From: a virus
Reading direction: 5' to 3' (one strand)
DNA length: 64,000 bases
IMG/VR virus record: IMGVR_UViG_3300029268_000006
Location: 1-64,000 of that record
The position numbers were made by a program, and so were the translations under genes. Positions 1,484-53,530 of the stretch are shown here, piece after piece (the first letter of the stretch is position 1; each line of letters opens with the position of its first letter). A model generated the notes under the pieces. That model was given only the letters and a program-made list of their open reading frames with translations. It was not told the origin of the DNA and did not search any database.

Positions 1484-3781
1484 TTATGATACTGTTGTTC
1501 CAGTTGTAGATTGAATAATATTTGTATTATAAAGATTATTTGAAGATGACCAACCAAAATCCAATTTCATTTGGAAAATAGCATCAATTCTTATATTTCT
1601 TTTTAATAATTCAATATCTTCAATTTTAACTCTTTGACAAACAAATACATTATTTTTATAATAAGAAATAATTCCAATTATACTTATTTCTTTTAATAGT
1701 GTATTTAATTGTGAATCACTTAAATTTGGTTTAGCATATATTACTAAATTTCTATAATAATCAAGTTGTCCTCTCGAATTTGGATTTATAACTGGTATAC
1801 CACTCGCGTCAAATTGTGGTGGTGGTGTGTTTTCTAAATTTGTACCACTACCAGAATTTGTATTATTACCTGTTTCACCACCCGTGTTTATTCCGGTGTT
1901 TATTATGTTAGTATTTCCAATTGCATTACTTGTTCCATTTACGGGTGTTCCTGTATTTATTCCATTTACGGGTGTTCCTGTATTTATTCCATTTACGGGT
2001 GTTCCTGTATTCGAAGTTGGTGTTCCAATTATTAATGGACCAGTATTATAAGTTGTGGTTGATCCGGTACTTGTAATTGGAAATAAATTATTATTTTTAC
2101 TAATATCTACAAATTTCATCGAATCAAAAATTTTAAATTTTCCACTATATAATAAAGTTTTTGTTTTATTTGAGTTTAGAATAATATAAAAATTATCAAA
2201 TTTATCTTTTGACATTTGTTTTAAAACTGGAACATCTTCTTGGTTAACTTTAAAAACAACAATTCCCAAATCAAATCTATTTTCATCTGTTTGATAATAA
2301 ATATCTTTTTCAATATATTTATTATCTGATTGAAAAACTAAATTTAGTTTTCCATTCATTATTATTTCACTTAAACTATAAGGTAAAATTGGACTATCGA
2401 TTGAATCTTGTTTTCCTATTTGAAATTTAATAACATTATCAAATGGTGTCAACACAATATTTAAAGTTCCCATTGATTTATAATCATTTTGATTATTAGT
2501 ATAATTACTTGCTAAAATTTTATAATTGTTAATTAGAATGGGGAAAGGTATTTTAACAATATTTTGATTATTTTGTATTTGATTTTGAATATTTGTATTT
2601 CCAAAATTCATTATTTTATCAGCTTTATAATTATATATTTTTGGTTTAGTAATAGTTGAAACATCTAATCTTGCTAATTTTTTACCATATTTTAGAAGAT
2701 TATTTGTTAAACCTATGGATGATAATCTACTAATAGAACTATTATCAATCAGATCAATAACTTTCATTTCAACATCAATTACGGCTGTTGTGTTTGAATA
2801 TTTAATTATGGGTCTATATTCTATTTTTTGAGAAAAATTTTCTGTTATCAAAAAAGTTGTTGGAAACCCACTAATCAAATTTTCTTCATATAGGGTAACA
2901 ACATATTCTATATTTATTTTTTTCCCTTTATTTTCCAATTCGTTTACGAAATTATCAAGATTTTCATTTGAATTATTATAAGTACCATAAATTTCAAAAA
3001 AATCCCAATCAGTAGATTCATTTATTGAAACACCCAATGATTGAAACTCTGGTTGTCTCGGTATTGATAATTTTGCAGTATCACCCAAATTAAAATAATC
3101 GGTTCCAAAAGTGTTAGTTTTTGATGTAACAAATGAGAATTCCAAAAATAATGGATTACTTAAACTTAATCCAATACCGTTTGTTAAATGATCATTTATC
3201 GAATCTGGTGTAACTTGATTTATATTTGTATTTATATCCCTTTGATTACTGATACTATTTATAGATGGGACATAAAATTGAATATATTTTCCCCATTCTT
3301 TTCCATTATAAAGAAAAGGTTGTCCTAAATTTATTATATATTCTGAATATTCATTAATACCATTTATAACTTGAATTCCGGTTTTGTCATAATAAAAATT
3401 ACTTAACCAAAATTTAGTTTTATTATAATAATCATAACTATAACAGGAAAAATAAAATCCAACATATGTATCAAAATTATAATTATTTGGAAAATACATA
3501 GTAACTTTATCATACATTACTGGTGAAGAAAAATAATTCTGAATTCTTAAAAAATTAAATTTTGTAGTATCAATTTTTGCATATTTTTTCAAAACCGGAT
3601 CAACAACAAACAAATTATGATTGATATCGTTATAATTAGTAGTACTTAAAAAATTTCTAGTTCCTCTAGAAATATCTGACCATACTTGATAATTTTCAGA
3701 TACATAATTAGAATTATATTCATATTCCAATAAAATATTTGGATTGATATTGATTAACTTTTTAGTTGGTGTTGCTGCCAT
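1484..3781 (-). CDS. Hypothetical protein (765 aa), probably structural
   Basis: Long ORF preceded by TAATATATA at 3804-3812. Contains NTGTPVNGI x3 repeats near the C-terminus. Confidence 0.75.
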   Translation of the reverse strand: MAATPTKKLININPNILLEYEYNSNYVSENYQVWSDISRGTRNFLSTTNYNDINHNLFVVDPVLKKYAKIDTTKFNFLRIQNYFSSPVMYDKVTMYFPNNYNFDTYVGFYFSCYSYDYYNKTKFWLSNFYYDKTGIQVINGINEYSEYIINLGQPFLYNGKEWGKYIQFYVPSINSISNQRDINTNINQVTPDSINDHLTNGIGLSLSNPLFLEFSFVTSKTNTFGTDYFNLGDTAKLSIPRQPEFQSLGVSINESTDWDFFEIYGTYNNSNENLDNFVNELENKGKKINIEYVVTLYEENLISGFPTTFLITENFSQKIEYRPIIKYSNTTAVIDVEMKVIDLIDNSSISRLSSIGLTNNLLKYGKKLARLDVSTITKPKIYNYKADKIMNFGNTNIQNQIQNNQNIVKIPFPILINNYKILASNYTNNQNDYKSMGTLNIVLTPFDNVIKFQIGKQDSIDSPILPYSLSEIIMNGKLNLVFQSDNKYIEKDIYYQTDENRFDLGIVVFKVNQEDVPVLKQMSKDKFDNFYIILNSNKTKTLLYSGKFKIFDSMKFVDISKNNNLFPITSTGSTTTYNTGPLIIGTPTSNTGTPVNGINTGTPVNGINTGTPVNGTSNAIGNTNIINTGINTGGETGNNTNSGSGTNLENTPPPQFDASGIPVINPNSRGQLDYYRNLVIYAKPNLSDSQLNTLLKEISIIGIISYYKNNVFVCQRVKIEDIELLKRNIRIDAIFQMKLDFGWSSSNNLYNTNIIQSTTGTTVS

Positions 3782-3917
3782 TACAGAATTATTTCTTTTT
3801 ATTTATATATTAAAAAAGTTAAGATGGAAATAAAAAGAAATAAATACTCAAATGTTTTTTTGAATTGAAAATTATATTATTTGGAAATGATATTTTATAG
3901 ATTTAAAAATGAAATGA

Positions 3918-4090
3918 AAAGTCAAACCAAAAACCAAATGAATGACCACTGTTATAGTGGCTTCAGGGTATTTTAACCCGTCTCTTTTAACGTTTCACAG
4001 ACAAGATGCTTCTTAGGTTTCACAGAGAAATGAAACGCATCCACAGAGCTAGCCTCCACGTTCAATAACCGATATTCCATCGGTCAGTAT
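3918..4090 (-). ncRNA. TnpB omegaRNA/reRNA-like scaffold plus putative guide (IS200/IS605 right end), no adjacent tnpB
   Basis: Near-copy of 57450-57608, including a 38-nt identical block (3985-4022 vs 57517-57554). Ends in hairpin CCACT-ATAAC-AGTGG followed by TTCA. Confidence 0.8.
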
Positions 4091-4211
4091 AATTTATATA
4101 TCGGGTTGGCACATCCTGTTATGGTAGGCTCCGAAAATTATTTTTACTTTATTGATTTTACCCGAACCAAGTTTTTAGTCCGGAACCAAATATCAAAGAA
4201 CAATATAAATC

Positions 4212-4220
4212 TATATATTA
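4212..4220 (-). promoter_or_regulatory. TAATATATA phage promoter-like motif upstream of the orphan omegaRNA
   Basis: The same nonamer lies just upstream of sheath, tube and other genes (e.g. 14718-14726, 23300-23395, 50401-50409). Confidence 0.6.
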
Positions 4221-4246
4221 ACTAATGAAAGTCCAAAAAATAAAAT

Positions 4247-4274
4247 AAAAAAGGGGAAACCACTCCCCTTTTTT
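4247..4274. terminator. Bidirectional rho-independent terminator
   Basis: AAAAAAGGGG-AAACCACT-CCCCTTTTTT. Confidence 0.8.
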
Positions 4275-4305
4275 GTCAAACTAAAACCAAAATAAAAACC
4301 AAATC

Positions 4306-4794
4306 TTATTTTTCATCTTCTATTATAATATTATTTTCTTCACGATATTTCAATTCATTTTCAAAAGATTCTTTGTATCTGTTCGAAATACTTTTTACAT
4401 TTTGTAATATGGCTTTAATATGTTCATTTGACATATTTTTTAAAAAAACCATTTTTAAAGGTTGATCCAAATTTTTTCCATATGTACCCCACAATATAAC
4501 TTCTCTTGGTTTAAAACCAAGATTTAACATTACATCCAAATCTTCGGTGTAATACCACATACCGGGAAAATTTGGAATTATTCCAGTATTTACTAAAAGT
4601 TGGGTGAATCTCCAATCAGGATTATCCAACCAAACTTTTTTTAATTCTTCATAAACATCATCCGAAATAATAATATTATTATATGTTAATTTTTCATCAA
4701 TTTCAGAAATATTTATTGATCTTTCTTTTAAAAGATCTAAATAAGGGATTATTCTTTCTACTGGTCTCATTTTATTGAATTTTATTGGATGCAT
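4306..4794 (-). CDS. Hypothetical protein
   Basis: ORF in a co-oriented run of small genes. Confidence 0.7.
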   Translation of the reverse strand: MHPIKFNKMRPVERIIPYLDLLKERSINISEIDEKLTYNNIIISDDVYEELKKVWLDNPDWRFTQLLVNTGIIPNFPGMWYYTEDLDVMLNLGFKPREVILWGTYGKNLDQPLKMVFLKNMSNEHIKAILQNVKSISNRYKESFENELKYREENNIIIEDEK

Positions 4795-4805
4795 ATTTGA
4801 AATTT

Positions 4806-5072
4806 TTATCTATAAGTTATTAATCCGATATATTTATATTGTAAAATACATTCCGGTGAAAACTCACAACTTATAAATTTGTGTTTTAAATCTTCGGTGG
4901 TTGTTGTAATTTCGTTTTTATTAACATATTGTACAATCATTTCATATTTTGGATTTGATTTAAGAAAAACTTTTTCTCCACACATAAAATTAGTTGGTGA
5001 ATGGTGTATTATTGTATATTGCCAATCAGATAATTGTAAATCACCTCGTTTGAAATTTTCTTCTTCCATCAC
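4806..5072 (-). CDS. Hypothetical protein
   Basis: ORF with tight spacing to its neighbours. Confidence 0.6.
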   Translation of the reverse strand: MMEEENFKRGDLQLSDWQYTIIHHSPTNFMCGEKVFLKSNPKYEMIVQYVNKNEITTTTEDLKHKFISCEFSPECILQYKYIGLITYR

Positions 5073-5198
5073 TTTGATTTTTTATTTTCAAGTAAATATA
5101 AATATGTTATTTTTGTTTTTATTTGGTATGGGTGAATATTTAAGTTAAAGAATTTATTTTTTTTTCGTATTTGTTGTGATTACCAGTAGAAAATATTA

Positions 5199-5474
5199 TC
5201 ATACTATAAATGAATCTTTTTCAATTTTACCATCTTTAAGTCTCATTCTAAATTCAACTTGTCTTTTAAAAGGTATTTCTTCGAATATTTCCCAACATTC
5301 GTCATAATAATTATAACACTTTCTTGTATTCACCCAATTTTCAATTATGTCGGTTACTATCCAATCAGTATATTTTTTGAAAAATATCTTCGAAAAAAAG
5401 TTCAAATTTCTTTTTTGAGATAATAAATCTTCTTTTTGTTTTGATAAAATATCGATGTATTTTTGTTCTATCAT
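5199..5474 (-). CDS. Hypothetical protein
   Basis: ORF in an operon-like run. Confidence 0.6.
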   Translation of the reverse strand: MIEQKYIDILSKQKEDLLSQKRNLNFFSKIFFKKYTDWIVTDIIENWVNTRKCYNYYDECWEIFEEIPFKRQVEFRMRLKDGKIEKDSFIV

Positions 5475-5478
5475 ATTT

Positions 5479-5685
5479 TTAAAATTTAATAGTCATATCT
5501 TCCACACTATTAATATCGATTTCATAATAACCATCTATATGTTTTCGATTAATTAGTGTACTTCTATTGTTGTTAAAACCAGCATCTTCTGGTACATAAA
5601 GTAAACAGTAATCTTCACTACGATCAGCACTACCCTGACAATAAGTTGTCACTCTGTATTTGAATAATTTATATACGAATTTCAT
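5479..5685 (-). CDS. Hypothetical protein
   Basis: ORF with ATGA overlap with the upstream gene. Confidence 0.6.
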   Translation of the reverse strand: MKFVYKLFKYRVTTYCQGSADRSEDYCLLYVPEDAGFNNNRSTLINRKHIDGYYEIDINSVEDMTIKF

Positions 5686-5951
5686 AATTTTGTTTTATTT
5701 TCATCATCTATAAATATAAATATATCTTTTGATAATCTAGCATGTATCCCATTATCAAGAAAAACAGTACCATATTGACCATATTGATCATTGATAACAT
5801 AATAACCCATATTACCATTTTTAATTTTTTCCGTAGAACCCTCAAAATTTGTTATCATTATTCTTTTCCTCATTTTGTAATGTGGAACATATTCTACTTC
5901 GAAAATTTCAAAACCATCAGGTGTAATATCACCAACTTTATAATCATTCAT
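5682..5951 (-). CDS. Hypothetical protein
   Basis: ORF starting 2 nt after the ligase 3' remnant stop. Confidence 0.65.
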   Translation of the reverse strand: MNDYKVGDITPDGFEIFEVEYVPHYKMRKRIMITNFEGSTEKIKNGNMGYYVINDQYGQYGTVFLDNGIHARLSKDIFIFIDDENKTKL

Positions 5952-5953
5952 AA

Positions 5954-5998
5954 TTAATTTTTCAAATAATTTTCCAATTGTTCAACAGTCCAAATAGT
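5954..5998 (-). pseudogene. Orphan copy of the DNA ligase 3' end (TIWTVEQLENYLKN*)
   Basis: Encodes the same 9 aa (TIWTVEQLE) as ligase 8235-8261, with synonymous codon differences. Confidence 0.8.
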
Positions 5999-6540
5999 TA
6001 AAAACCCCTGACAGCACGAATATAGTTGTAGACGTTCTTAGCGTAGTTGGTCTGATCCCCATTGGTGAAACCCTGGCCCCACGCGTCGTAGGAAGAGGTC
6101 TCCGAGGAACTCCAGTAGTAGTAGTAGGCAACGAAACCACCAACACCCGTTTTATGTAATAAATAAATTTTATTTAGTTCATCTTTTGTCGGTAATCTCC
6201 AATCGTCAAACCCACCACCTCTATAATCAGAACATAATTTATTAGCATTTTCCCAGTTGGTACAACCCAAATCAACATCTGACACAATTAATTTTTGTTC
6301 AATTAGTAACTTATTTGATTCGATATTTAAATTTAAAACATCGTTATCTATTATCCAATTATTATATAATTCATAATCTCGTAATATTTTATCTTCAAAG
6401 AAATCACAATTCCAAGATAAATCATATATAATTTCACCATTCTTATTTTCATAAACATCTTTTATAAATGGATAAGATGGCCACATTGAGTCATTAGACT
6501 TTTTTAATTTTAATTTTGTTCCGATTTCTAATTTTTTCAT
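5998..6540 (-). CDS. DUF1566/Lcl-type C-type-lectin-fold protein, DGR target
   Basis: WENANKLC..Y.GGGFDDWRLPTKDEL and YWSSSE...AW...F..G.......K.....IRAVR motifs. Confidence 0.85.
   Translation of the reverse strand: MKKLEIGTKLKLKKSNDSMWPSYPFIKDVYENKNGEIIYDLSWNCDFFEDKILRDYELYNNWIIDNDVLNLNIESNKLLIEQKLIVSDVDLGCTNWENANKLCSDYRGGGFDDWRLPTKDELNKIYLLHKTGVGGFVAYYYYWSSSETSSYDAWGQGFTNGDQTNYAKNVYNYIRAVRGF
6001..6150 (-). other. DGR variable region (VR)
   Basis: About 52% GC by my count (78/150) in a very AT-rich genome. 22 of 50 codons end in C and none in A, as expected for codons derived from template AAC codons. Confidence 0.8.
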
Positions 6541-6594
6541 TTTTTAATTTTAATTTTAAATATAATAATTTTATTTGTTTAAAAAAAATTTATT

Positions 6595-6780
6595 TTAAAA
6601 ATCTTTTTCGATATTTAATCCTTTTTTTTCCATATCATCTCTTATCAATTTTTCAATATATTTTGATCTATTGTTAATATCTTCATTTTTGATGTGTTCA
6701 TCAAAAATCTTTAATAATTTATCAGTAATGGAAAATGAAAATTTTCTTTTCTTTTTTTCTTCTGGTTTCTTTTTATTCAT
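6595..6780 (-). CDS. Ribbon-helix-helix (CopG-like) DNA-binding protein
   Basis: KFSFSITDKLLKIFDE...NRSKYIEKLIRDDM pattern. Confidence 0.7.
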   Translation of the reverse strand: MNKKKPEEKKKRKFSFSITDKLLKIFDEHIKNEDINNRSKYIEKLIRDDMEKKGLNIEKDF

Positions 6781-6853
6781 AAAATTTTATTACTAATTTA
6801 TCACTTTTTGACCTTTATACTTTAATATATACTAAAAAAGAATAATAGTTTAT

Positions 6854-7012
6854 ATGAAAAGAAAAAAAGAAAAAGTGGTTGTTTCCATTTCAATTGATAA
6901 AAAACTTTGTTTATACATGGATGAATTGTTTTCTAATAAATCAAAATATCTCGAATGGTTAATATACGAAGATTTATCGAAAATAAAAAATTTAGAAAAA
7001 ATAATTATTTAA
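6854..7012 (+). CDS. Second RHH protein (52 aa, below ORF-track cutoff)
   Basis: Manual translation: MKRKKEKVVVSISIDKKLCLYMDELFSNKSKYLEWLIYEDLSKIKNLEKIII. Confidence 0.65.
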   Translation: MKRKKEKVVVSISIDKKLCLYMDELFSNKSKYLEWLIYEDLSKIKNLEKIII

Positions 7013-7014
7013 AT

Positions 7015-8223
7015 ATGAAAAAGAGAAAACAAAGAGGTTATTGGACGTATGAAAGATGTAAAGATGTGGCTTTAGAATGTAAGACTAAAAAGGAATTATC
7101 TGATAAATATATAAGTGTTATTGAAGTAATTCGTAAAAATAAATGGTTTGAATTAATATTACATTTTAATGAAGTACAAAAACCAAAAGGTTATTGGACA
7201 TATGATAAATGTAAAGAATCGGCACTTGAATGTAAAACTAAAATTGAAATGATTAAAAAGTATATTAGTGCTTATAACATTATTCGTAAAAATAAATGGT
7301 TTGAATTAATAGAACATTTTATAGAATTACGAAAATCCAAAGGTTATTGGACATATGATAAATGTAAAGATGTTGCTTTGAAATGTAAAAATAATAAAGA
7401 ATTAAGAAATTTTGATAGTGTATTTAATTCAATTCGTAGAAATAAATGGTTTGATTTGACATATCATTTTATCGAATTACAGAAACATCATGGTTACTGG
7501 ACATATGAAAAATGTAAAATGGAATCTTTAAAATTTAATAGTAGAATTGAAATGCGTGAAAATACATCTGCTTATTATGCAATTTGTAAAAATAAATGGT
7601 TTGATTTGTTTGAACACATGGTAAATAATTCTAATACTAGAAAAAGACTTATATATGTTTATGAATTTAGTGATAACTGTTGTTATGTTGGTTTAACAGG
7701 GAATATAAAAGTGAGAAATAATAGACATTTAAAAATAGAAAAAACAAGACCAATATTTAAACATATGTCCAAAACAAATTTAATTCCCAATCTTAATATA
7801 AAGACGGATTATTTACCAATTGAAGATGCTAAAAAATTAGAAAATGATTTTATTAATATGTATCGAAAAAACGGATGGATTGTTTTAAATAAAATAAAAG
7901 GCGGGACATTAGGTGGTAATATAGTAAAATGGAATAAAGAATCTTGTGAAAAAGATGTTAAAAAATATAATAAATTGTCAACTTTTAGAAAAAATTCTCA
8001 AAGTTCTTATTATTCTATATTAAAAAATGGTTGGTTTGATGAAATTTGTAGTCATTTAAAAAGATCTAAAGTTAAGAATGGATATTGGAATAATAAAGAA
8101 TTATGTAAGTTTGAATCTGAAAAATATAAAAATAAAACGACTTTTTTTAAAAAATGTGGATCGGCTTATGAACATTCTAGAAAAAATGGTTGGTTAAATG
8201 AATTTTTTCCAAAAAATTATTAA
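7015..8223 (+). CDS. GIY-YIG homing endonuclease with tandem GYWTYEKC repeats
   Basis: LIYVYEF...CYVGLT...R..RH motif and repeated ~43-aa modules. ATG 7015 directly follows the RHH stop (track start 6955). Confidence 0.8.
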   Translation: MKKRKQRGYWTYERCKDVALECKTKKELSDKYISVIEVIRKNKWFELILHFNEVQKPKGYWTYDKCKESALECKTKIEMIKKYISAYNIIRKNKWFELIEHFIELRKSKGYWTYDKCKDVALKCKNNKELRNFDSVFNSIRRNKWFDLTYHFIELQKHHGYWTYEKCKMESLKFNSRIEMRENTSAYYAICKNKWFDLFEHMVNNSNTRKRLIYVYEFSDNCCYVGLTGNIKVRNNRHLKIEKTRPIFKHMSKTNLIPNLNIKTDYLPIEDAKKLENDFINMYRKNGWIVLNKIKGGTLGGNIVKWNKESCEKDVKKYNKLSTFRKNSQSSYYSILKNGWFDEICSHLKRSKVKNGYWNNKELCKFESEKYKNKTTFFKKCGSAYEHSRKNGWLNEFFPKNY

Positions 8224-10178
8224 CTTAAGAATGATTCAAGTTGTTCGACTGTCCAAATAGTCATTCCGTATTCTAAAGCTTTCTTTTCTTTTGAAGAACC
8301 ACTACCGATGGATTTCATAATCAAATTTGTGCAGTTTCTACTTATTGAATCCACTACTTTTCCACTTTCTTGTTGAATTTTTTGCTCTAAATCCTTACGC
8401 CTTATACCCGTAAAAATGAAAGTCATACCAATACATTTACTTCCAGTTGGTGTAAAAGGTTCATCTTTTTTTATTGTGATTGGAAGTGTAGACAACCATT
8501 TAAAGAAACGATCATAATTACTACAATAAATAATAGCCGATGTTTCTTCGAAACCTTTTATTTTTTTAACGTCAGTAACTGAAGGTTTTTGTGTGAAGTG
8601 TTCTAACAGAATAAGTTTTTTACTTCCTAAACTGAAACCACTTGTTGGGTCAGTAAAGAATCCTGATGCGTGTTGTAATTTTGATAACGTAATTCCATCA
8701 ATTTTAGAATGAATATCATCGTAGATATTTGATGATTTAGTATCGCCCATTCGTTCTAATTTTCTGAAATCATCAATTGACATATCAATAATTTTTTCAA
8801 TTGTATCATATCCTGAATTGAATAACTGTCGAAAAGTGGTCTCCCTCACATTTTCAACACCAAGAATATCAAAAAAAGACGTAATCTGTTTTATTATTTT
8901 GTCAGAGCAATTATTATTAGTACACATTAAATGTGTGTTGGTATCATTCCAAATTAATGTAGTGTTACAACAAGGACAATTTGATGGTAATGATAATTGT
9001 TTATCTGATTTTTTTACAACGTCAATTATAAGAGGTATAACACTTCCACTTCTACAAATTCTTACTCGTGTTCCAGTACCACCTAACTTAATAACATTTT
9101 TTATATTATTACAAGTTACATTACTAACCAATGCACCATCAAGCATAATTGGTTCTACTTGGGCAACTGGTATTAGGAAACCCATTTTCGATATTTCAAA
9201 TGTAATATTAAGAATTGTGGTTTCTTTCACTTCTTCAAAGGATGCTTTATAAGCTCTCGCATAACCCGGATTCATCACAAGTGGGTTATCTTTGGTTGAT
9301 CTTTCTGAATTAATACTTTTTCTTAAATCTTTATCATTTACTTCAATAACAAGTCCATCAATTTCGAAATTTTTATTCCATTCATCAAAAACACATCTTA
9401 AATATTCAGCATTCAAATTATCAATAGTTTGAAGAATATAAGGGACTTGAAAGTTGTCATCATTGAAATATTGATTTAAAATATCAAGTTGTACACTTTT
9501 ATCCAAATCCATACCACAATGAAAACTATATCTCATATAAACAACATCATTAAATGCTGGTTTATTTTCTTTTTTATATTTGTTGAAAAGGCCACCAACA
9601 CGATTTCTACCATTATCAAATCCATTTTCATCGCCCAAAGCTTTTTTTGAATGTTTTTTCAGAAACACATCTTTTGTTATAAGTGCTTCACCAGTGGTAT
9701 AAATAAATGGTGCGTATTGATATGATTGTAAAAAAGATTCAATTTTATCTTTTGAATATTTTTCCATCACATCCTTAAAATGTGGATCAGAATTTTGACC
9801 AATTGCACCATCACCTCTTGTCCAAGCTTTCGATGCTTTAACATCATTTAAAATAGAAAGACCGTCATATTTTGGTGTAATACAAAGAACGGTATCGAGA
9901 GGAATCCCCTTTTTAATCATCCAAGCTTTTAATTCTTCATAAGATTTAACCTTATTCATTGATGCCATAATCAATGGAAGATTTTCTTTACGATCATCAT
10001 CTGGTGGCGTTTCACCAACTTTTGTAACTCTTTTATTATCAGGATCTAAATCGTCTAATTCTTCAATGTGTGAATCATAAACAGAATCAGGGACGATTTG
10101 TTTACCTTCAAATCTGTAAGAATAATTCCATTGATCTAAAAGGATTTCTAATTCTTTAATTCTTTCGGTGTTTTCCAT
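8220..10178 (-). CDS. ligA: NAD-dependent DNA ligase
   Basis: KYDG adenylation motif, IDGLVI, zinc finger CPCC, C-terminal BRCT (FIFTG). Start placed at M10 because a promoter box overlaps the track start. Confidence 0.95.
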   Translation of the reverse strand: MENTERIKELEILLDQWNYSYRFEGKQIVPDSVYDSHIEELDDLDPDNKRVTKVGETPPDDDRKENLPLIMASMNKVKSYEELKAWMIKKGIPLDTVLCITPKYDGLSILNDVKASKAWTRGDGAIGQNSDPHFKDVMEKYSKDKIESFLQSYQYAPFIYTTGEALITKDVFLKKHSKKALGDENGFDNGRNRVGGLFNKYKKENKPAFNDVVYMRYSFHCGMDLDKSVQLDILNQYFNDDNFQVPYILQTIDNLNAEYLRCVFDEWNKNFEIDGLVIEVNDKDLRKSINSERSTKDNPLVMNPGYARAYKASFEEVKETTILNITFEISKMGFLIPVAQVEPIMLDGALVSNVTCNNIKNVIKLGGTGTRVRICRSGSVIPLIIDVVKKSDKQLSLPSNCPCCNTTLIWNDTNTHLMCTNNNCSDKIIKQITSFFDILGVENVRETTFRQLFNSGYDTIEKIIDMSIDDFRKLERMGDTKSSNIYDDIHSKIDGITLSKLQHASGFFTDPTSGFSLGSKKLILLEHFTQKPSVTDVKKIKGFEETSAIIYCSNYDRFFKWLSTLPITIKKDEPFTPTGSKCIGMTFIFTGIRRKDLEQKIQQESGKVVDSISRNCTNLIMKSIGSGSSKEKKALEYGMTIWTVEQLESFLS

Positions 10179-10202
10179 TTTATATTGTTTTGATTTATGA
10201 TA

Positions 10203-10210
10203 CAAAGATA
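10203..10210 (-). promoter_or_regulatory. Bacteroidota-type -7 box TAnnTTTG (TATCTTTG)
   Basis: The same consensus occurs at 12749-12756, 14432-14439, 32951-32958 (minus) and 59163-59170, 59227-59234 (plus), each just upstream of a gene start. Confidence 0.7.
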
Positions 10211-10239
10211 CGATGATTATGTGACATAAAAAAATTTAT

Positions 10240-10479
10240 TTAAATATAATCCTTGAAATTTTTAAACATTTCAGGTGTCATACCTTTCTTTATTAACTTC
10301 ATAGTAAATATTAATTTATCTAACTTTCTATCATCAGCTAAAAACCCACATTTTTTACACCTAAAATAAGCTGCACCGTTCTTATCTTTCCAATTGTGTT
10401 CACAATTGGATTGTTTTTTAATTCTTTTAATTGTGGGATTAAAAAGTTGAATTATTCGTTGTTTTATTTTATCTTCCAT
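10240..10479 (-). CDS. Hypothetical protein with a small zinc-ribbon motif
   Basis: CEHNW...CKKCG. Confidence 0.6.
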   Translation of the reverse strand: MEDKIKQRIIQLFNPTIKRIKKQSNCEHNWKDKNGAAYFRCKKCGFLADDRKLDKLIFTMKLIKKGMTPEMFKNFKDYI

Positions 10480-11153: not shown

Positions 11154-12077
11154 TTATCTTCTTCCACCACCACTTCTAATACTTCCACCACTCCCACCAC
11201 TTCGTGATGGTGAAGAATAACTCGGTGAACTTCTTTGTGGGGAATAATAACTCGGTGAACTCCTTTGTGGGGAATAACTCGGTGAACTCCTTTGTGGGGA
11301 ATAACTCGGTGAACTCCTTTGTGGGACACTTCTTTGATATCCCGGATTGGTTGTTCTTTGTGATGGTGTTGAATATCCCGGATTGGTTGTTCTTTGTGAT
11401 GGTGTTGAATAACCCGGATTTGTAGTTCTTTGTGATGGTGTTGAATAACGAGAATTTTGTGTATTTGTTTGTCTTACACTTGGTTGCACACTTCTATAAT
11501 ATTCTTGACTACTTTTAGCTTGTCGATATATTGGAGATGTATAATTTTGTGATTTAGATGTTCTTGAATATTTAGGTTGATTTATTTTGGAATTTTTTTG
11601 GTTTGGTCTGATATAATTGTATTTGGAATTTCTTTGATTTGGTTGTGAATATTTATGATTTAAATTATTCAATCCTTGATGATTCCAATTGTGATGATTA
11701 TGATAATTCCATCCATAATTCCAATAACATCCATAATAAGGATAATAGTAATACGGGTAATAATATGGATAATATGGAAATCCCCAATAATAAGAATAAA
11801 AATAATATGGATAAAATGAATATGGGTTCCACAAATAATATTCAGGACTCCAATAAGAATAGGTTGGTAAAATATTCAAATTGTAATAAGGGACATTGTT
11901 ACTAGAATTAATATAATCATCGTAAAATGTTTGGGATATTTTTATTGTATCTGTTGATTTTGATTTAACAGAATCCACTTCAATCAAATTCCAATCTTTG
12001 TCAATTTTAGTCATGTGTTTTGTGGATGTACAACTTACTAAAATTAAAAGAGTGATATAAAGGAAAAATTTTTTCAT
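11154..12077 (-). CDS. Lipoprotein with Tyr/Pro-rich block and S/P/R/Q repeats
   Basis: Lipobox LVSC; repeats YSTPSQRTTNPG x3 and PQRSSPSYS x4. Confidence 0.75.
   Translation of the reverse strand: MKKFFLYITLLILVSCTSTKHMTKIDKDWNLIEVDSVKSKSTDTIKISQTFYDDYINSSNNVPYYNLNILPTYSYWSPEYYLWNPYSFYPYYFYSYYWGFPYYPYYYPYYYYPYYGCYWNYGWNYHNHHNWNHQGLNNLNHKYSQPNQRNSKYNYIRPNQKNSKINQPKYSRTSKSQNYTSPIYRQAKSSQEYYRSVQPSVRQTNTQNSRYSTPSQRTTNPGYSTPSQRTTNPGYSTPSQRTTNPGYQRSVPQRSSPSYSPQRSSPSYSPQRSSPSYYSPQRSSPSYSSPSRSGGSGGSIRSGGGRR
11218..11440 (-). repeat. 27-nt and 36-nt coding tandem repeats
   Basis: CTCGGTGAACTCCTTTGTGGGGAATAA and CCCGGATTGGTTGTTCTTTGTGATGGTGTTGAATA units, in frame with 11154..12077. Confidence 0.85.
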
Positions 12078-52456: not shown

Positions 52457-53530
52457 ATGAATAAAACAGAAAATTTTATTAAAAAATCTATTGATATTCA
52501 TGGTAATTTATATGATTATTCATTGGTTGAATATATTAATAATAATACCAAAGTAAAAATTTTATGTAATGAACATGGTGAATTTAAACAAAAACCAGTA
52601 AATCATATATATTTTAAATGTGGTTGTCCTAAATGTGCAGGAAAAAATATAACTACACAAGAATTTATAGAAAAATGTAATAAAATTCATGGTAATTTAT
52701 ATGATTATTCATTGGTTGATTATAAAACAATGCACATTAAAATAAAGATAATATGTCCAGAACACGGTATTTTTGAACAAACACCATCTAATCATATTCA
52801 TCATGGATGTAAAAAATGTTTTTTTGATAAAAAGAGAAATAATGAAAAAATAATAATTGAAAAATTCAAAAAATTACATAATAATTTATATGATTATTCA
52901 TTGATTGATTATAAAACTATGAATACCAAAATAAAAATAGTTTGTTTAAAACACGGTATTTTTGAACAAACACCAGTGAATCATTTACAAGGTAAAGGAT
53001 GTTATAAATGTTCACCAAATAGTAAAAAAGATATTTTTTTAATTTTAGAAAAATTAAATGAATTACATAATAATAAATATAATTATGATATGAATTTTAA
53101 TAAAACTTCAAATAAAATTGAAATTTTATGTGACAAACACGGTATTTTTTACCAAACACTAAATAATCATTTGGATGGTCATGGGTGTCCTTTTTGTAAT
53201 GAAAGTAGTGGTGAAAAGAAAATTAATCAATATTTAAGTGAAAAAAATATAAAATTTGAAAGACAAAAAACATTTTCATCTTGTAAAGATAAAAGAAAAT
53301 TACCATTTGATTTTTATTTATGTGATTATAATTTATGTATTGAATATGATGGTGAACAGCATTTTATGATTGTGGAAGAATGGGGTGGTGAAGAAAAATT
53401 TTTAATTATTAAAAAACATGATGAAATAAAAAATGAATTCTGTTGGAAAAATTCAATAAAATTATTGAGAATTAATTATGAAGAAAAAATAGAAGAAAAA
53501 ATATCTAATTTTTTTTTAGACATTCTTTAA
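52457..53530 (+). CDS. Homing endonuclease-like with YDYS.V.Y...C..HG.F repeats
   Basis: Four repeats plus LPFDFY...CIEYDG.QH nuclease motif. Confidence 0.85.
   Translation: MNKTENFIKKSIDIHGNLYDYSLVEYINNNTKVKILCNEHGEFKQKPVNHIYFKCGCPKCAGKNITTQEFIEKCNKIHGNLYDYSLVDYKTMHIKIKIICPEHGIFEQTPSNHIHHGCKKCFFDKKRNNEKIIIEKFKKLHNNLYDYSLIDYKTMNTKIKIVCLKHGIFEQTPVNHLQGKGCYKCSPNSKKDIFLILEKLNELHNNKYNYDMNFNKTSNKIEILCDKHGIFYQTLNNHLDGHGCPFCNESSGEKKINQYLSEKNIKFERQKTFSSCKDKRKLPFDFYLCDYNLCIEYDGEQHFMIVEEWGGEEKFLIIKKHDEIKNEFCWKNSIKLLRINYEEKIEEKISNFFLDIL

Follow-up and report, generated by a model that had tools for sequence, protein, structure and literature searches.

The 64,000-nt stretch analysed here (the window; positions 1 to 64,000 of IMG/VR virus record IMGVR_UViG_3300029268_000006) comes from a giant lake-water phage, and in it the 3' end of a DNA ligase gene is present twice, the two copies being separated by a block of about 2.2 kb that carries four genes of its own (Table 1). 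The questions raised by this locus are which of the two ends the ligase originally possessed, and how the intervening block came to lie between them.

Table 1. Features at the ligase 3' end of the window
Feature	Position (nt)	Strand	Basis or remark
89-aa gene, probable former downstream neighbour of the ligase	5682..5951	minus	homologue P0123
Orphan native ligase tail, TIWTVEQLENYLKN and stop	5954..5998	minus	repeat copy 5972-5998
DGR-type target gene, 180 aa	5998..6540	minus	Pfam Lcl_C (DUF1566), 50.5 bits
Ribbon-helix-helix gene, RHH(-)	6595..6780	minus	divergent from the RHH(+)/GIY-YIG operon
Phage promoter-like motif, TTTAATATATA	6821..6831	plus	23 nt ahead of the RHH(+) ATG
Small ribbon-helix-helix gene, RHH(+)	6854..7012	plus	leads the nuclease operon
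Free-standing GIY-YIG endonuclease gene, 402 aa	7015..8223	plus	Pfam GIY-YIG, phrog_20046
Resident ligase tail, TIWTVEQLESFLS and stop	8220..8261	minus	direct reading, BLAST; repeat copy 8235-8261
NAD-dependent DNA ligase, LigA type	8220..10205	minus	Pfam DNA_ligase_aden, OB, BRCT

Two copies of the ligase end

The ligase ORF terminates in GMTIWTVEQLESFLS and a stop (direct reading and BLAST), and these last codons and stop share a 4-nt overlap with the stop of the GIY-YIG gene. Translation likely begins at the ATG at nt 10178, giving a protein of 652 aa, which scores 208 bits against the NCBIfam LigA model (curated cut-off 369). The second, orphan copy begins directly at the end of the DGR-type target gene, the first A of its ACT being the final A of the TAA stop of that ORF. 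The two copies are identical at 23 of 27 nt, and all four differences are synonymous (ACT/ACA, GTT/GTC, TTG/CTT). Beyond the repeat, the orphan frame runs on as ENYLKN to a stop at nt 5954-5956, 2 nt ahead of the ATG (nt 5951) of the 89-aa ORF; the orphan sits where a gene end formerly stood. When the last 20 aa of the ligase were aligned with the orphan, the BLOSUM62 score was 58, while the best score elsewhere was 27 (about 5 kb in three frames) and controls at other loci gave 28-32; the match is therefore far above chance. Direct reading and BLAST bear out the first-pass annotation, which had described the ligase tail with a recoded second copy downstream; the close spacing between the orphan stop and the next ATG, also described there, was confirmed by direct reading.

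The recoding itself had been taken as the sign of a cleavage-resistant replacement end. This did not hold, as the 4 differences in 27 nt equal the divergence between ordinary alleles of the same stretch (3-5 of 27; window versus L024 and L005) and provide no evidence of selection for resistance.

Evidence for a cassette-less ancestor was found among related ligases. One of 22 close relatives, P0006, ends exactly with the orphan tail (14 of 14 aa). The 89-aa gene has only two homologues, one of them P0123 (73%), from a 10,707-bp ENA contig. The contig of P0006 agrees with it in length and source, and no GIY-YIG homologue from such a 10,707-bp contig was present among the best 120 matches. Of the predicted relative with an orphan-type tail beside a homologue of the 89-aa gene, the tail was found, and the neighbour is placed with it only by the matching length and source of the contigs. 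Comparison of these sequences supports the view that the block between the tails was inserted into an ancestor that lacked the cassette, and that it supplies the present end of the ligase. Such an insertion with a replacement end had been proposed before, and it is upheld by the P0006 tail, by the mosaic structure of the ligase (see below) and by the tails of the cassette-bearing L024 and L006, where an ESFL/EEFLS-type end abuts or overlaps the GIY-YIG stop. In L006 the junction is the same, TTAAGTTAA (FLS and stop), in a ligase only 37% identical to that of the window.

Nuclease and ribbon-helix-helix genes

The gene content between the two tails, a GIY-YIG nuclease, two RHH proteins and a DGR-type target, matches that given in the first-pass annotation. 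The true start of the nuclease gene is the ATG at nt 7015 rather than at nt 6955. Its catalytic domain is central (about aa 205-295). Helical repeats of about 50 aa each (GYWTYEKCK...NKWF), four N-terminal to this domain and two C-terminal to it, presumably bind DNA. When aa 201-305 alone were searched, PF01541 gave 22.9 bits (cut-off 22.6). Among 29 homologues, Y214, Y224, G226, R234, E276 and N292 are invariant and H238 is nearly so. An AlphaFold model (pLDDT 83) had as its top seven PDB matches the GIY-YIG domains of I-TevI and UvrC proteins, with a target TM of about 0.59-0.69 and weak whole-protein E-values (0.24-1.8). Judged by residue conservation and the modelled fold, the catalytic domain is intact.

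The RHH(-) product matches RHH_1 (20.6 bits, cut-off 20.5), phrog_4738 (transcriptional repressor) and the NikR N-terminal domain. That of RHH(+) is without a Pfam match and is 42% identical to the other RHH protein over 38 aa. Within the 73-nt divergent intergenic region (nt 6781-6853) lies the motif TTTAATATATA, which occurs 12 times in the window against an expectation of 1.4 and is inferred to work as a promoter.

The DGR-type target gene

The target, a hypervariable-type binding protein, has a unique N-terminal part of 80 aa, and its C-terminal part is an Lcl_C domain with 14,899 relatives. The variable region (VR) is the last ~140 nt of the gene (about nt 5998-6140) and lies at the C-terminus of a protein of the C-type-lectin fold (Lcl_C/DUF1566). 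It is GC-rich and rich in NNC codons, ends in VRAVRGF and the stop, and stands out as a patch of 52% G+C (about nt 6000-6150) in a genome of ~24% G+C. Small homologues of the target retain the scaffold (DWRLPT..., YWSSSE, VRAVRGF and stop) and vary at interspersed positions. No reverse transcriptase (RVT_1) was matched in the 132-kb record, itself an estimated 19% of the genome; a template repeat was found neither in these 132 kb (with A-to-N changes and, in addition, 6 mismatches per 50 nt tolerated) nor, by anchored pattern, in IMG/VR, and there is no hairpin 3' of the VR. Two decayed copies of the VR end are present elsewhere in the genome, and all three target-gene ends carry GTTTTT..AAC(T/C)ATTT 3' of the stop. 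The target gene is now co-oriented with the downstream operon.

Distribution of the cassette among other phages

L006 and L012/14/17 share the core RHH(-)/RHH(+)/GIY-YIG arrangement at the 3' end of the ligase gene, the RHH(+) gene being kept upstream of the nuclease gene in both L006 and L012; in L010/11 the GIY-YIG gene, again at the ligase 3' end, is preceded by a different small gene. The ligases of these phages are 34-37% identical to that of the window, and their nucleases 40-48%. A closer homologue, 64% identical over the available part, is found in L024, where it is convergent on a P0002-type ligase gene with overlapping stops. The cassette is absent from the ligase ends of L004, L005, L029, L030, LR756502 and LR745206, and L004 has another nuclease gene at this site, so the GIY-YIG gene shows presence/absence polymorphism at a single site among relatives. 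In the ligase tree the cassette bearers fall into two separate clades.

The cassettes of L006, L010 and L012 carry neither a DGR target nor an orphan tail, and the latter was found at no other cassette-bearing locus examined (L006, L010, L012). Since the core is found at ligase ends without the DGR gene, this comparison of loci supports the block in the window as a homing-endonuclease cassette of ligase ends, with the DGR-type gene apparently its hitchhiking cargo. By the same comparison, the DGR target is no fixed component of the element. The target gene could have arrived in a second, separate event.

A mosaic ligase gene

The window ligase is composed of tracts of different affinity: aa 2-305 are P0006-like, aa 322-564 P0002-like and aa 566-640 again P0006-like, while the last residues are of the cassette type. 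The 137 informative sites (agreeing with either P0002 or P0006) form 34 runs, and none of 100,000 shuffles was as clustered. For most of aa 322-560 the nucleotide identity to L024 is 86-94%, falling in places to 80-84%; in the rest of the gene it is 66-87%. This level of identity indicates that L024 is not itself the donor. A single simple conversion tract fits poorly, because the P0006-like patch at aa 566-640 separates the donor-like tract from the cassette; the interruption calls for patchy repair, a mosaic donor or more than one event.

Origin of the block

On balance, the segment from ~5999 to 8234 is probably foreign to the recipient, having been copied from a related phage through a ligase-end homing cassette. 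The recipient would have had a ligase ending in TIWTVEQLENYLKN and a stop, its translation coupled to that of the 89-aa gene. The donor would have been a related phage in which the cassette (the divergent RHH pair and the nuclease) was already convergent on the ligase gene and overlapped its stop, a DGR-type target gene having been added in that lineage on the far side. During co-infection the nuclease may have cut the cassette-less ligase allele, and donor-templated repair, using ligase homology on one side, would have co-converted aa 322-564 together with the ESFLS tail. Because these phages carry different genes downstream of the ligase, the far end would have been joined illegitimately, presumably at ACTATTT, which occurs both in the native 3' flank of the target gene and, as the codons ACT-ATT-T, in the ligase. 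The 14 terminal codons of the recipient ligase would be left behind as the orphan, and the ligase would have stayed intact because the cassette provides a homologous end.

Much of this could be had without a nuclease-made break, by ordinary recombination in co-infected cells with one crossover within the ligase gene and an illegitimate one at ACTATTT, the nuclease being a passive passenger in a plasticity zone. The sequence downstream of the ligase does differ in each relative examined (L004, L005 and the window), and repeated homologous exchange would fit the patchy mosaic. We nevertheless regard this as unlikely, since the same nuclease family with its RHH partners, in the same place and orientation, recurs beside ligases of only 34-37% identity, in two separate clades, and is there more conserved than the ligase, all of which points to a site-specific homing gene and not random cargo. 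That two strains were mis-joined at the repeat during assembly is barely credible: metagenomic data are open to such errors at repeats, but a repeat of 27 nt with 85% identity has neither the length nor the similarity to mislead an assembler, and the orphan abuts the stop of an unrelated gene, with no second full gene end. Moreover, 91% of sampled 31-mers of nt 5300-8900 are present in a run of one independent lake-water study, and on this k-mer evidence the arrangement is probably not a one-off assembly join.

Two further readings concern the far junction, which the first-pass annotation had placed exactly at the VR 3' end, among DGR homing signals. The position was correct, the junction falling at the VR stop; nothing ties it to the signals. 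Template-primed cDNA integration at the VR 3' end (IMH region) might have fused the target to the ligase tail, and the location of the junction together with the two decayed VR-end copies would suit such an event. It is nonetheless very improbable, given that the 132 kb yielded neither reverse transcriptase nor template repeat and that the VR is not followed by a hairpin; VR sequence is replaced in retrohoming, which to our knowledge does not join foreign flanks. On the sequences compared, the junction appears better explained by the simpler ACTATTT microhomology of the native flank. Alternatively, the orphan could be no one-off scar: in a self-contained WHO-like element it would serve as the right-hand homology arm, a functional recombination site, as does the downstream fragment in WHO, which is rebuilt after homing from the recipient's former 3' end (PMC7282813). 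The orphan is indeed intact and identical in protein sequence to the tail of the cassette-less P0006. The homology spans just 27 nt, however, and such a fragment is missing from the cassette-bearing L006, L010 and L012 (the L024 sequence ends before the expected place), which makes a functional arm decidedly improbable.

Beyond the copying event favoured here, it is conceivable, if doubtful, that RHH/RHH/GIY-YIG is a WHO-like homing element dedicated to ligase ends in giant freshwater phages, with a resistant end and arbitrary far-side cargo, that spreads a DGR variable-protein gene independently of reverse transcriptase and template. If so, homing could be a route by which phages gain remote DGR targets, joined at the conserved VR 3' flank.

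Comparison with known systems

No described element of this kind had been known to the first-pass annotation, yet the design has precedents in mORF gene hybrids (PMC3630166) and WHO elements (PMC7282813). These fungal mitochondrial hybrids and yeast elements are the closest analogues. The mORF hybrids, reported for atp6 of Allomyces macrogynus and for atp6, atp9, cox2 and nad3 of Glomus sp., have an in-frame foreign C-terminal end, an endonuclease ORF (GIY-YIG in atp9) and, downstream, a native C*-terminal remnant that matches the closest element-free relative, and the differences between the copies are largely synonymous (PMC3630166). In the window, too, a foreign substitute end in frame is followed by a nuclease gene and then by the stranded native end. 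The window departs from the mORF hybrids in its host, a dsDNA giant phage, and in its target, a DNA ligase gene; its nuclease gene lies on the opposite strand and converges on the host gene, a pair of RHH genes and an unrelated cargo gene are added, and the duplication is very short, at 9 codons.

WHO elements home into an essential gene, swapping its 3' end each time and leaving the former 3' end downstream, so that the target becomes a 5'/3' chimera with discordant phylogenies (PMC7282813). At yeast FBA1 the replaced end was shown to confer nuclease resistance (Coughlan et al. 2020, PMC7282813). In contrast to the window, WHO proteins are intein-like, of LAGLIDADG/zinc-finger type, act in a eukaryotic nucleus and have been shown to cleave allele-specifically (PMC7282813). 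The window fragment is only 45 nt long.

Among phages, the Seg genes of T4-like phages are likewise free-standing GIY-YIG genes beside conserved DNA-metabolism genes, with co-conversion of flanking markers and a patchy presence among relatives (PMC2988022; PMC2330249). Seg genes, by contrast, lie between genes and are not reported in these accounts to take over the end of a gene and leave its former end stranded (PMC2988022; PMC2330249); the RHH pair and helical repeat modules of the window cassette are no features of Seg genes. One-sided homing in T4 with illegitimate repair at microhomologies, as recounted in review, provides an experimental precedent (Parker et al. 1999, reviewed in PMC2988022). 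In ICP1-like HEG islands, nucleases with repetitive DNA-binding modules are encoded at the bounds of exchanged segments and bring cargo genes (Barth, Dunham and Seed 2023, PMC10448857); the window differs in that its cargo is a DGR-type variable-protein gene and its segment ends inside the last codons of the ligase. Fungal mitochondria and yeast thus already offer examples of the gene-end-replacing design, and what is unusual in the cassette described here is its extra cargo.

Two ends of the ligase gene

The first-pass annotation described two ends for the NAD-ligase gene, with the second lying downstream of a cassette, and this was confirmed by reading of the sequence. The resident tail (the present end of the ligase) and the orphan tail (its probable former end) are identical at 23 of the 27 nt that code for TIWTVEQLE, and all four differences are synonymous. 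When the 20-residue ligase tail was scanned over about 5 kb in three frames it scored 58 at the orphan and not more than 27 elsewhere; scores in three other loci, used as controls, reached 28–32. The orphan tail begins on the final base of the stop codon that closes a 180-aa gene resembling the target of a diversity-generating retroelement (DGR), and its own stop lies 2 nt ahead of the ATG of an 89-aa gene. At the other border, the stops of the ligase and of a convergent GIY-YIG nuclease gene overlap by 4 nt. The TIWTVEQLE pattern had no matches in IMG/VR.

Features of the cassette and related sequences (window coordinates, or those of G000, the whole viral record; L002 and L003 are pieces of that record)
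Feature	Position	Strand	Description
89-aa gene	5682..5951		
Orphan ligase tail	5954..5998	minus, as ligase	TIWTVEQLENYLKN, then stop
Target gene, 180 aa	5998..6540	minus	C-terminal Lcl_C/DUF1566 domain, 50.5 bits
Ribbon-helix-helix (RHH) gene	6595..6780	minus	one of two divergent paralogues
RHH gene	6854..7012	plus	one of two divergent paralogues
GIY-YIG gene, 402 aa	7015..8223	plus	central GIY-YIG domain, Pfam 22.9 bits when scanned alone
Resident ligase tail	8220..8261		
NAD-ligase ORF	8220..10205	minus	ends TIWTVEQLESFLS, then stop; adenylation, OB and BRCT domains
VR-end relic, 35 nt	G000 102126-102160 (L003:1500-1535)		VRA-RGF with a 1-nt deletion, plus flank TTTTTAACTATTT
Original VR end of truncated target paralogue	G000 ~104560-104600		...ICAVRSF, then stop
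Truncated target paralogue	G000 104742-105080 (with its VR end, L002:1300-1830)	minus	85% over aa 81-147
GIY-YIG paralogue	G000 114886-116136	minus	repeat-rich; 37-38% identity (range of the two)
GIY-YIG paralogue	G000 125956-127305	plus	repeat-rich; 37-38% identity (range of the two)

The resident tail had also been regarded as recoded. This is not supported, as the difference from the orphan (4/27 nt) is comparable to those seen between lineages, namely 3/27 to the tail of locus L024 and 4/27 to that of L005, two relatives described below. The changes are of the kind that purifying selection lets build up between two lineages, and Glomus atp6 is a parallel case (PMC3630166). Given the precedent of the yeast WHO elements (PMC7282813), it is a reasonable expectation that the substitute end would resist the nuclease of its cassette.

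Related ligases and a putative empty site

Ligase relatives numbered 22 (64–83% identity), and their tails vary, those of P0002, P0003, P0016 and P0017 being of ESFL type. One of the 22, P0006, ends with exactly the 14 residues of the orphan. A search of 5.8 billion clusters gave the 89-aa gene only two homologues. The contig of one, P0123, comes from ENA and is 10,707 bp long, and the single contig of P0006 agrees with it in length and source. None of the best 120 matches to the GIY-YIG protein came from such a 10,707-bp contig. These comparisons suggest indirectly that a cassette-less, empty site exists in a phage of P0006 type. In L005 the ligase (74% identity) is uninterrupted, ends IWTVEQLENFLNK before the stop, and has no cassette. 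The L024 ligase, of P0002 type (82%), ends ESFLNLN, its stop overlapping that of a convergent GIY-YIG homologue (64% identical over the part of the gene compared). Of only four loci obtained by scanning metagenomes with the ligase, three were short or truncated; an alignment-based scan of IMG/VR added only distant ligases, all without the cassette.

A different endonuclease-like gene (294 aa; L004:9988-10872), with KIHGNKYDYS...CPKHG repeat modules, overlaps the ligase stop in L004, where the end of the ligase has likewise been rewritten. Repeat modules of 189 nt, like those of the L004 nuclease, are also found at 52460-53190 of the window.

There are 137 sites at which P0002 is unlike P0006 and the ligase of the window has the residue of one or the other. 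The window protein is P0006-like over aa 2-305, P0002-like over 322-564, P0006-like again over 566-640, and P0002-like in its last residues. The number of runs among the 137 sites is 34, and clustering this strong arose in 0 of 100,000 shuffles. In the middle tract, DNA identity to L024 is mostly 86–94% and falls to 80–84% in places; outside the tract it is 66–87%. The block is thus bordered at each end by sequence of P0006 kind, by the 5' part of the ligase at one end and by the orphan tail with the 89-aa gene at the other, and it differs from this sequence in kind, as does part of the ligase. The block therefore appears to be an insertion accompanied by exchange of ligase sequence.

The nuclease and RHH genes

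A GIY-YIG nuclease and two RHH genes between the tails had been annotated, and Pfam, an alignment of 29 nuclease homologues and the paralogy of the RHH genes agree on this. Tyr214, Tyr224, Gly226, Arg234, Glu276 and Asn292 are invariant in that alignment, and His238 nearly so. The AlphaFold model of the nuclease has a pLDDT of 83, and its seven best PDB matches are the GIY-YIG domains of I-TevI and UvrC (target TM 0.59–0.69), although whole-protein E-values are weak. Helical repeats, each about 50 aa long, flank the domain; of the six, four are N-terminal and two C-terminal.

The 73-nt spacer between the RHH genes, at 6781-6853, holds one copy of TTTAATATATA, a sequence present 12 times in the window against 1.4 expected (e.g. 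at 6821, 14505, 14716, 28298, 42120 and 45702). It is typically positioned 20–30 nt ahead of a start codon and is probably a phage promoter element.

The cassette core in other phages

The order RHH(-), RHH(+), GIY-YIG(+), ligase(-) is repeated in loci L006 and L012/14/17, and in L010/11 the GIY-YIG gene is accompanied by a different small upstream gene. Identity to the window in these loci is only 34–37% for the ligase and 40–48% for the nuclease. L006 shares the junction ...TTAAGTTAA with the window, and so its ligase likewise ends in FLS. Neither a DGR-type gene nor an orphan tail was present in the L006-, L010- and L012-type core loci, and a search for the orphan tail in L006, L010, L012 and L004 gave nothing above background. 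The ligases of L029, L030 and the uncultured phages LR756502 and LR745206 have no cassette, and the cassette bearers form two separate, well-supported groups on the ligase tree. Other members of the nuclease family are found in unrelated genomic contexts. The core appears older and wider than the insertion event of the window, in whose lineage the DGR-type gene would be extra cargo. As the distribution is patchy but faithful to the site, it is consistent with a homing endonuclease gene, and this is the role we infer for the nuclease.

The DGR-type target gene

The last ~140 nt of the target gene are 52% G+C and full of NNC codons. Its small homologues keep a scaffold (DWRLPT, YWSSSE, and VRAVRGF before the stop) in which interspersed positions vary, and by this pattern the 3' part looks like a DGR variable region (VR). 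Neither a reverse transcriptase nor a template repeat was found in the 132 kb record, an estimated 19% of the genome. An anchored template-repeat pattern gave 0 matches in IMG/VR; a pattern made fully degenerate (A or X) was uninformative, as its only matches were poly-A-like stretches. Neither IMG/VR nor the GenBank phages contained a close relative of the target gene or the 89-aa gene. In the truncated target paralogue the VR is interrupted by ~150 nt of AT-rich DNA between two copies of TGGAGTTCYTCKGA, and the original VR end persists downstream. The 35-nt VR-end relic lies in the spacer of two convergent genes.

Proposed origin of the insertion

The far junction had been tied to DGR homing signals. 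There is no hairpin following the VR in the DNA, and nothing links the junction to retrohoming. All three copies of the target-gene end in the genome have GTTTTT..AAC(T/C)ATTT directly after the stop, and ACTATTT is therefore part of the native 3' flank of this gene. The same 7 nt occur in the ligase (ATG ACT ATT TGG), so that the junction falls in a microhomology, and a microhomology junction is plausible. When homology is one-sided, homing in T4 ends with an illegitimate repair step that uses microhomologies (reviewed in PMC2988022), and the far end here may have been joined in this way, by one-sided repair at ACTATTT. This is plausible because each relative examined has different genes downstream of the ligase. 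The donor-like ligase tract and the cassette are not contiguous, so one clean conversion tract would not account for them. The reading of the RHH and nuclease genes as a toxin-antitoxin or defence system is unsupported, because the PADLOC defence families gave no match to the cassette genes.

Genome setting

The record is 132,134 bp long, the window being its first 64 kb, and has an estimated completeness of 19%, for a genome of roughly 0.6–0.7 Mb. The G+C content is about 24% and endonuclease genes are numerous; DNA of the window is present in three lake-water metagenomic runs. The ligase shares 39–41% identity with those of the 635–642 kb phages LR745206 and LR756502. A 200-nt intergenic patch at 3935-4140 has a raised G+C content (38–40%, genome 24%) and several hairpins (minus strand z = -1.55); it had no Rfam match at E <= 0.1 and is possibly a small RNA. 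No Rfam families were found across 3700-10400. At 1-312, tandem repeats of 45 nt that encode SGTSGSS-type units open a large structural-looking ORF, and a 307-aa lipoprotein-like ORF (11154-12077) carries repeats of 27–36 nt (YSTPSQRTTNPG, SPQRSSPSY).

Comparison with known systems

A limited literature search found no DGR target linked to a homing cassette and no phage gene end replaced like that of the window ligase. The first-pass annotation knew of no described element that combines these features. The layout is in fact known: a foreign gene end, an endonuclease gene and the native end stranded downstream define the mORF gene hybrids of fungal mitochondria (PMC3630166), and the WHO elements at yeast FBA1 are arranged likewise (PMC7282813). 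Homing by free-standing GIY-YIG nucleases with co-conversion is classical in T4 (PMC2988022), and ICP1-like phages have nuclease-bounded islands that carry cargo (PMC10448857).

The ligase end in the window is a natural, fairly fresh insertion scar of homing type in a giant phage. With the old gene end and its substitute both still present, it illustrates how a selfish nuclease gene can lodge in an essential gene when neither an intron nor an intein is involved. The data point to a ligase-end-specific family, a GIY-YIG nuclease with an RHH pair, conserved over very divergent huge phages, which offers a defined substrate for tests of cleavage specificity. They also suggest that hypervariable (DGR-type) binding-protein genes can travel as cassette cargo; if true, this would be one route to DGR targets that lie at a distance from the reverse transcriptase. 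Fungi and yeast already provide examples of the general design, and the advance is incremental, not fundamental. The structure at the ligase end is real and well preserved, and represents a known type of element in a host new to it, alike in layout to the mORF hybrids and WHO elements but with two new features of its own, the RHH pair and the DGR-type cargo gene.
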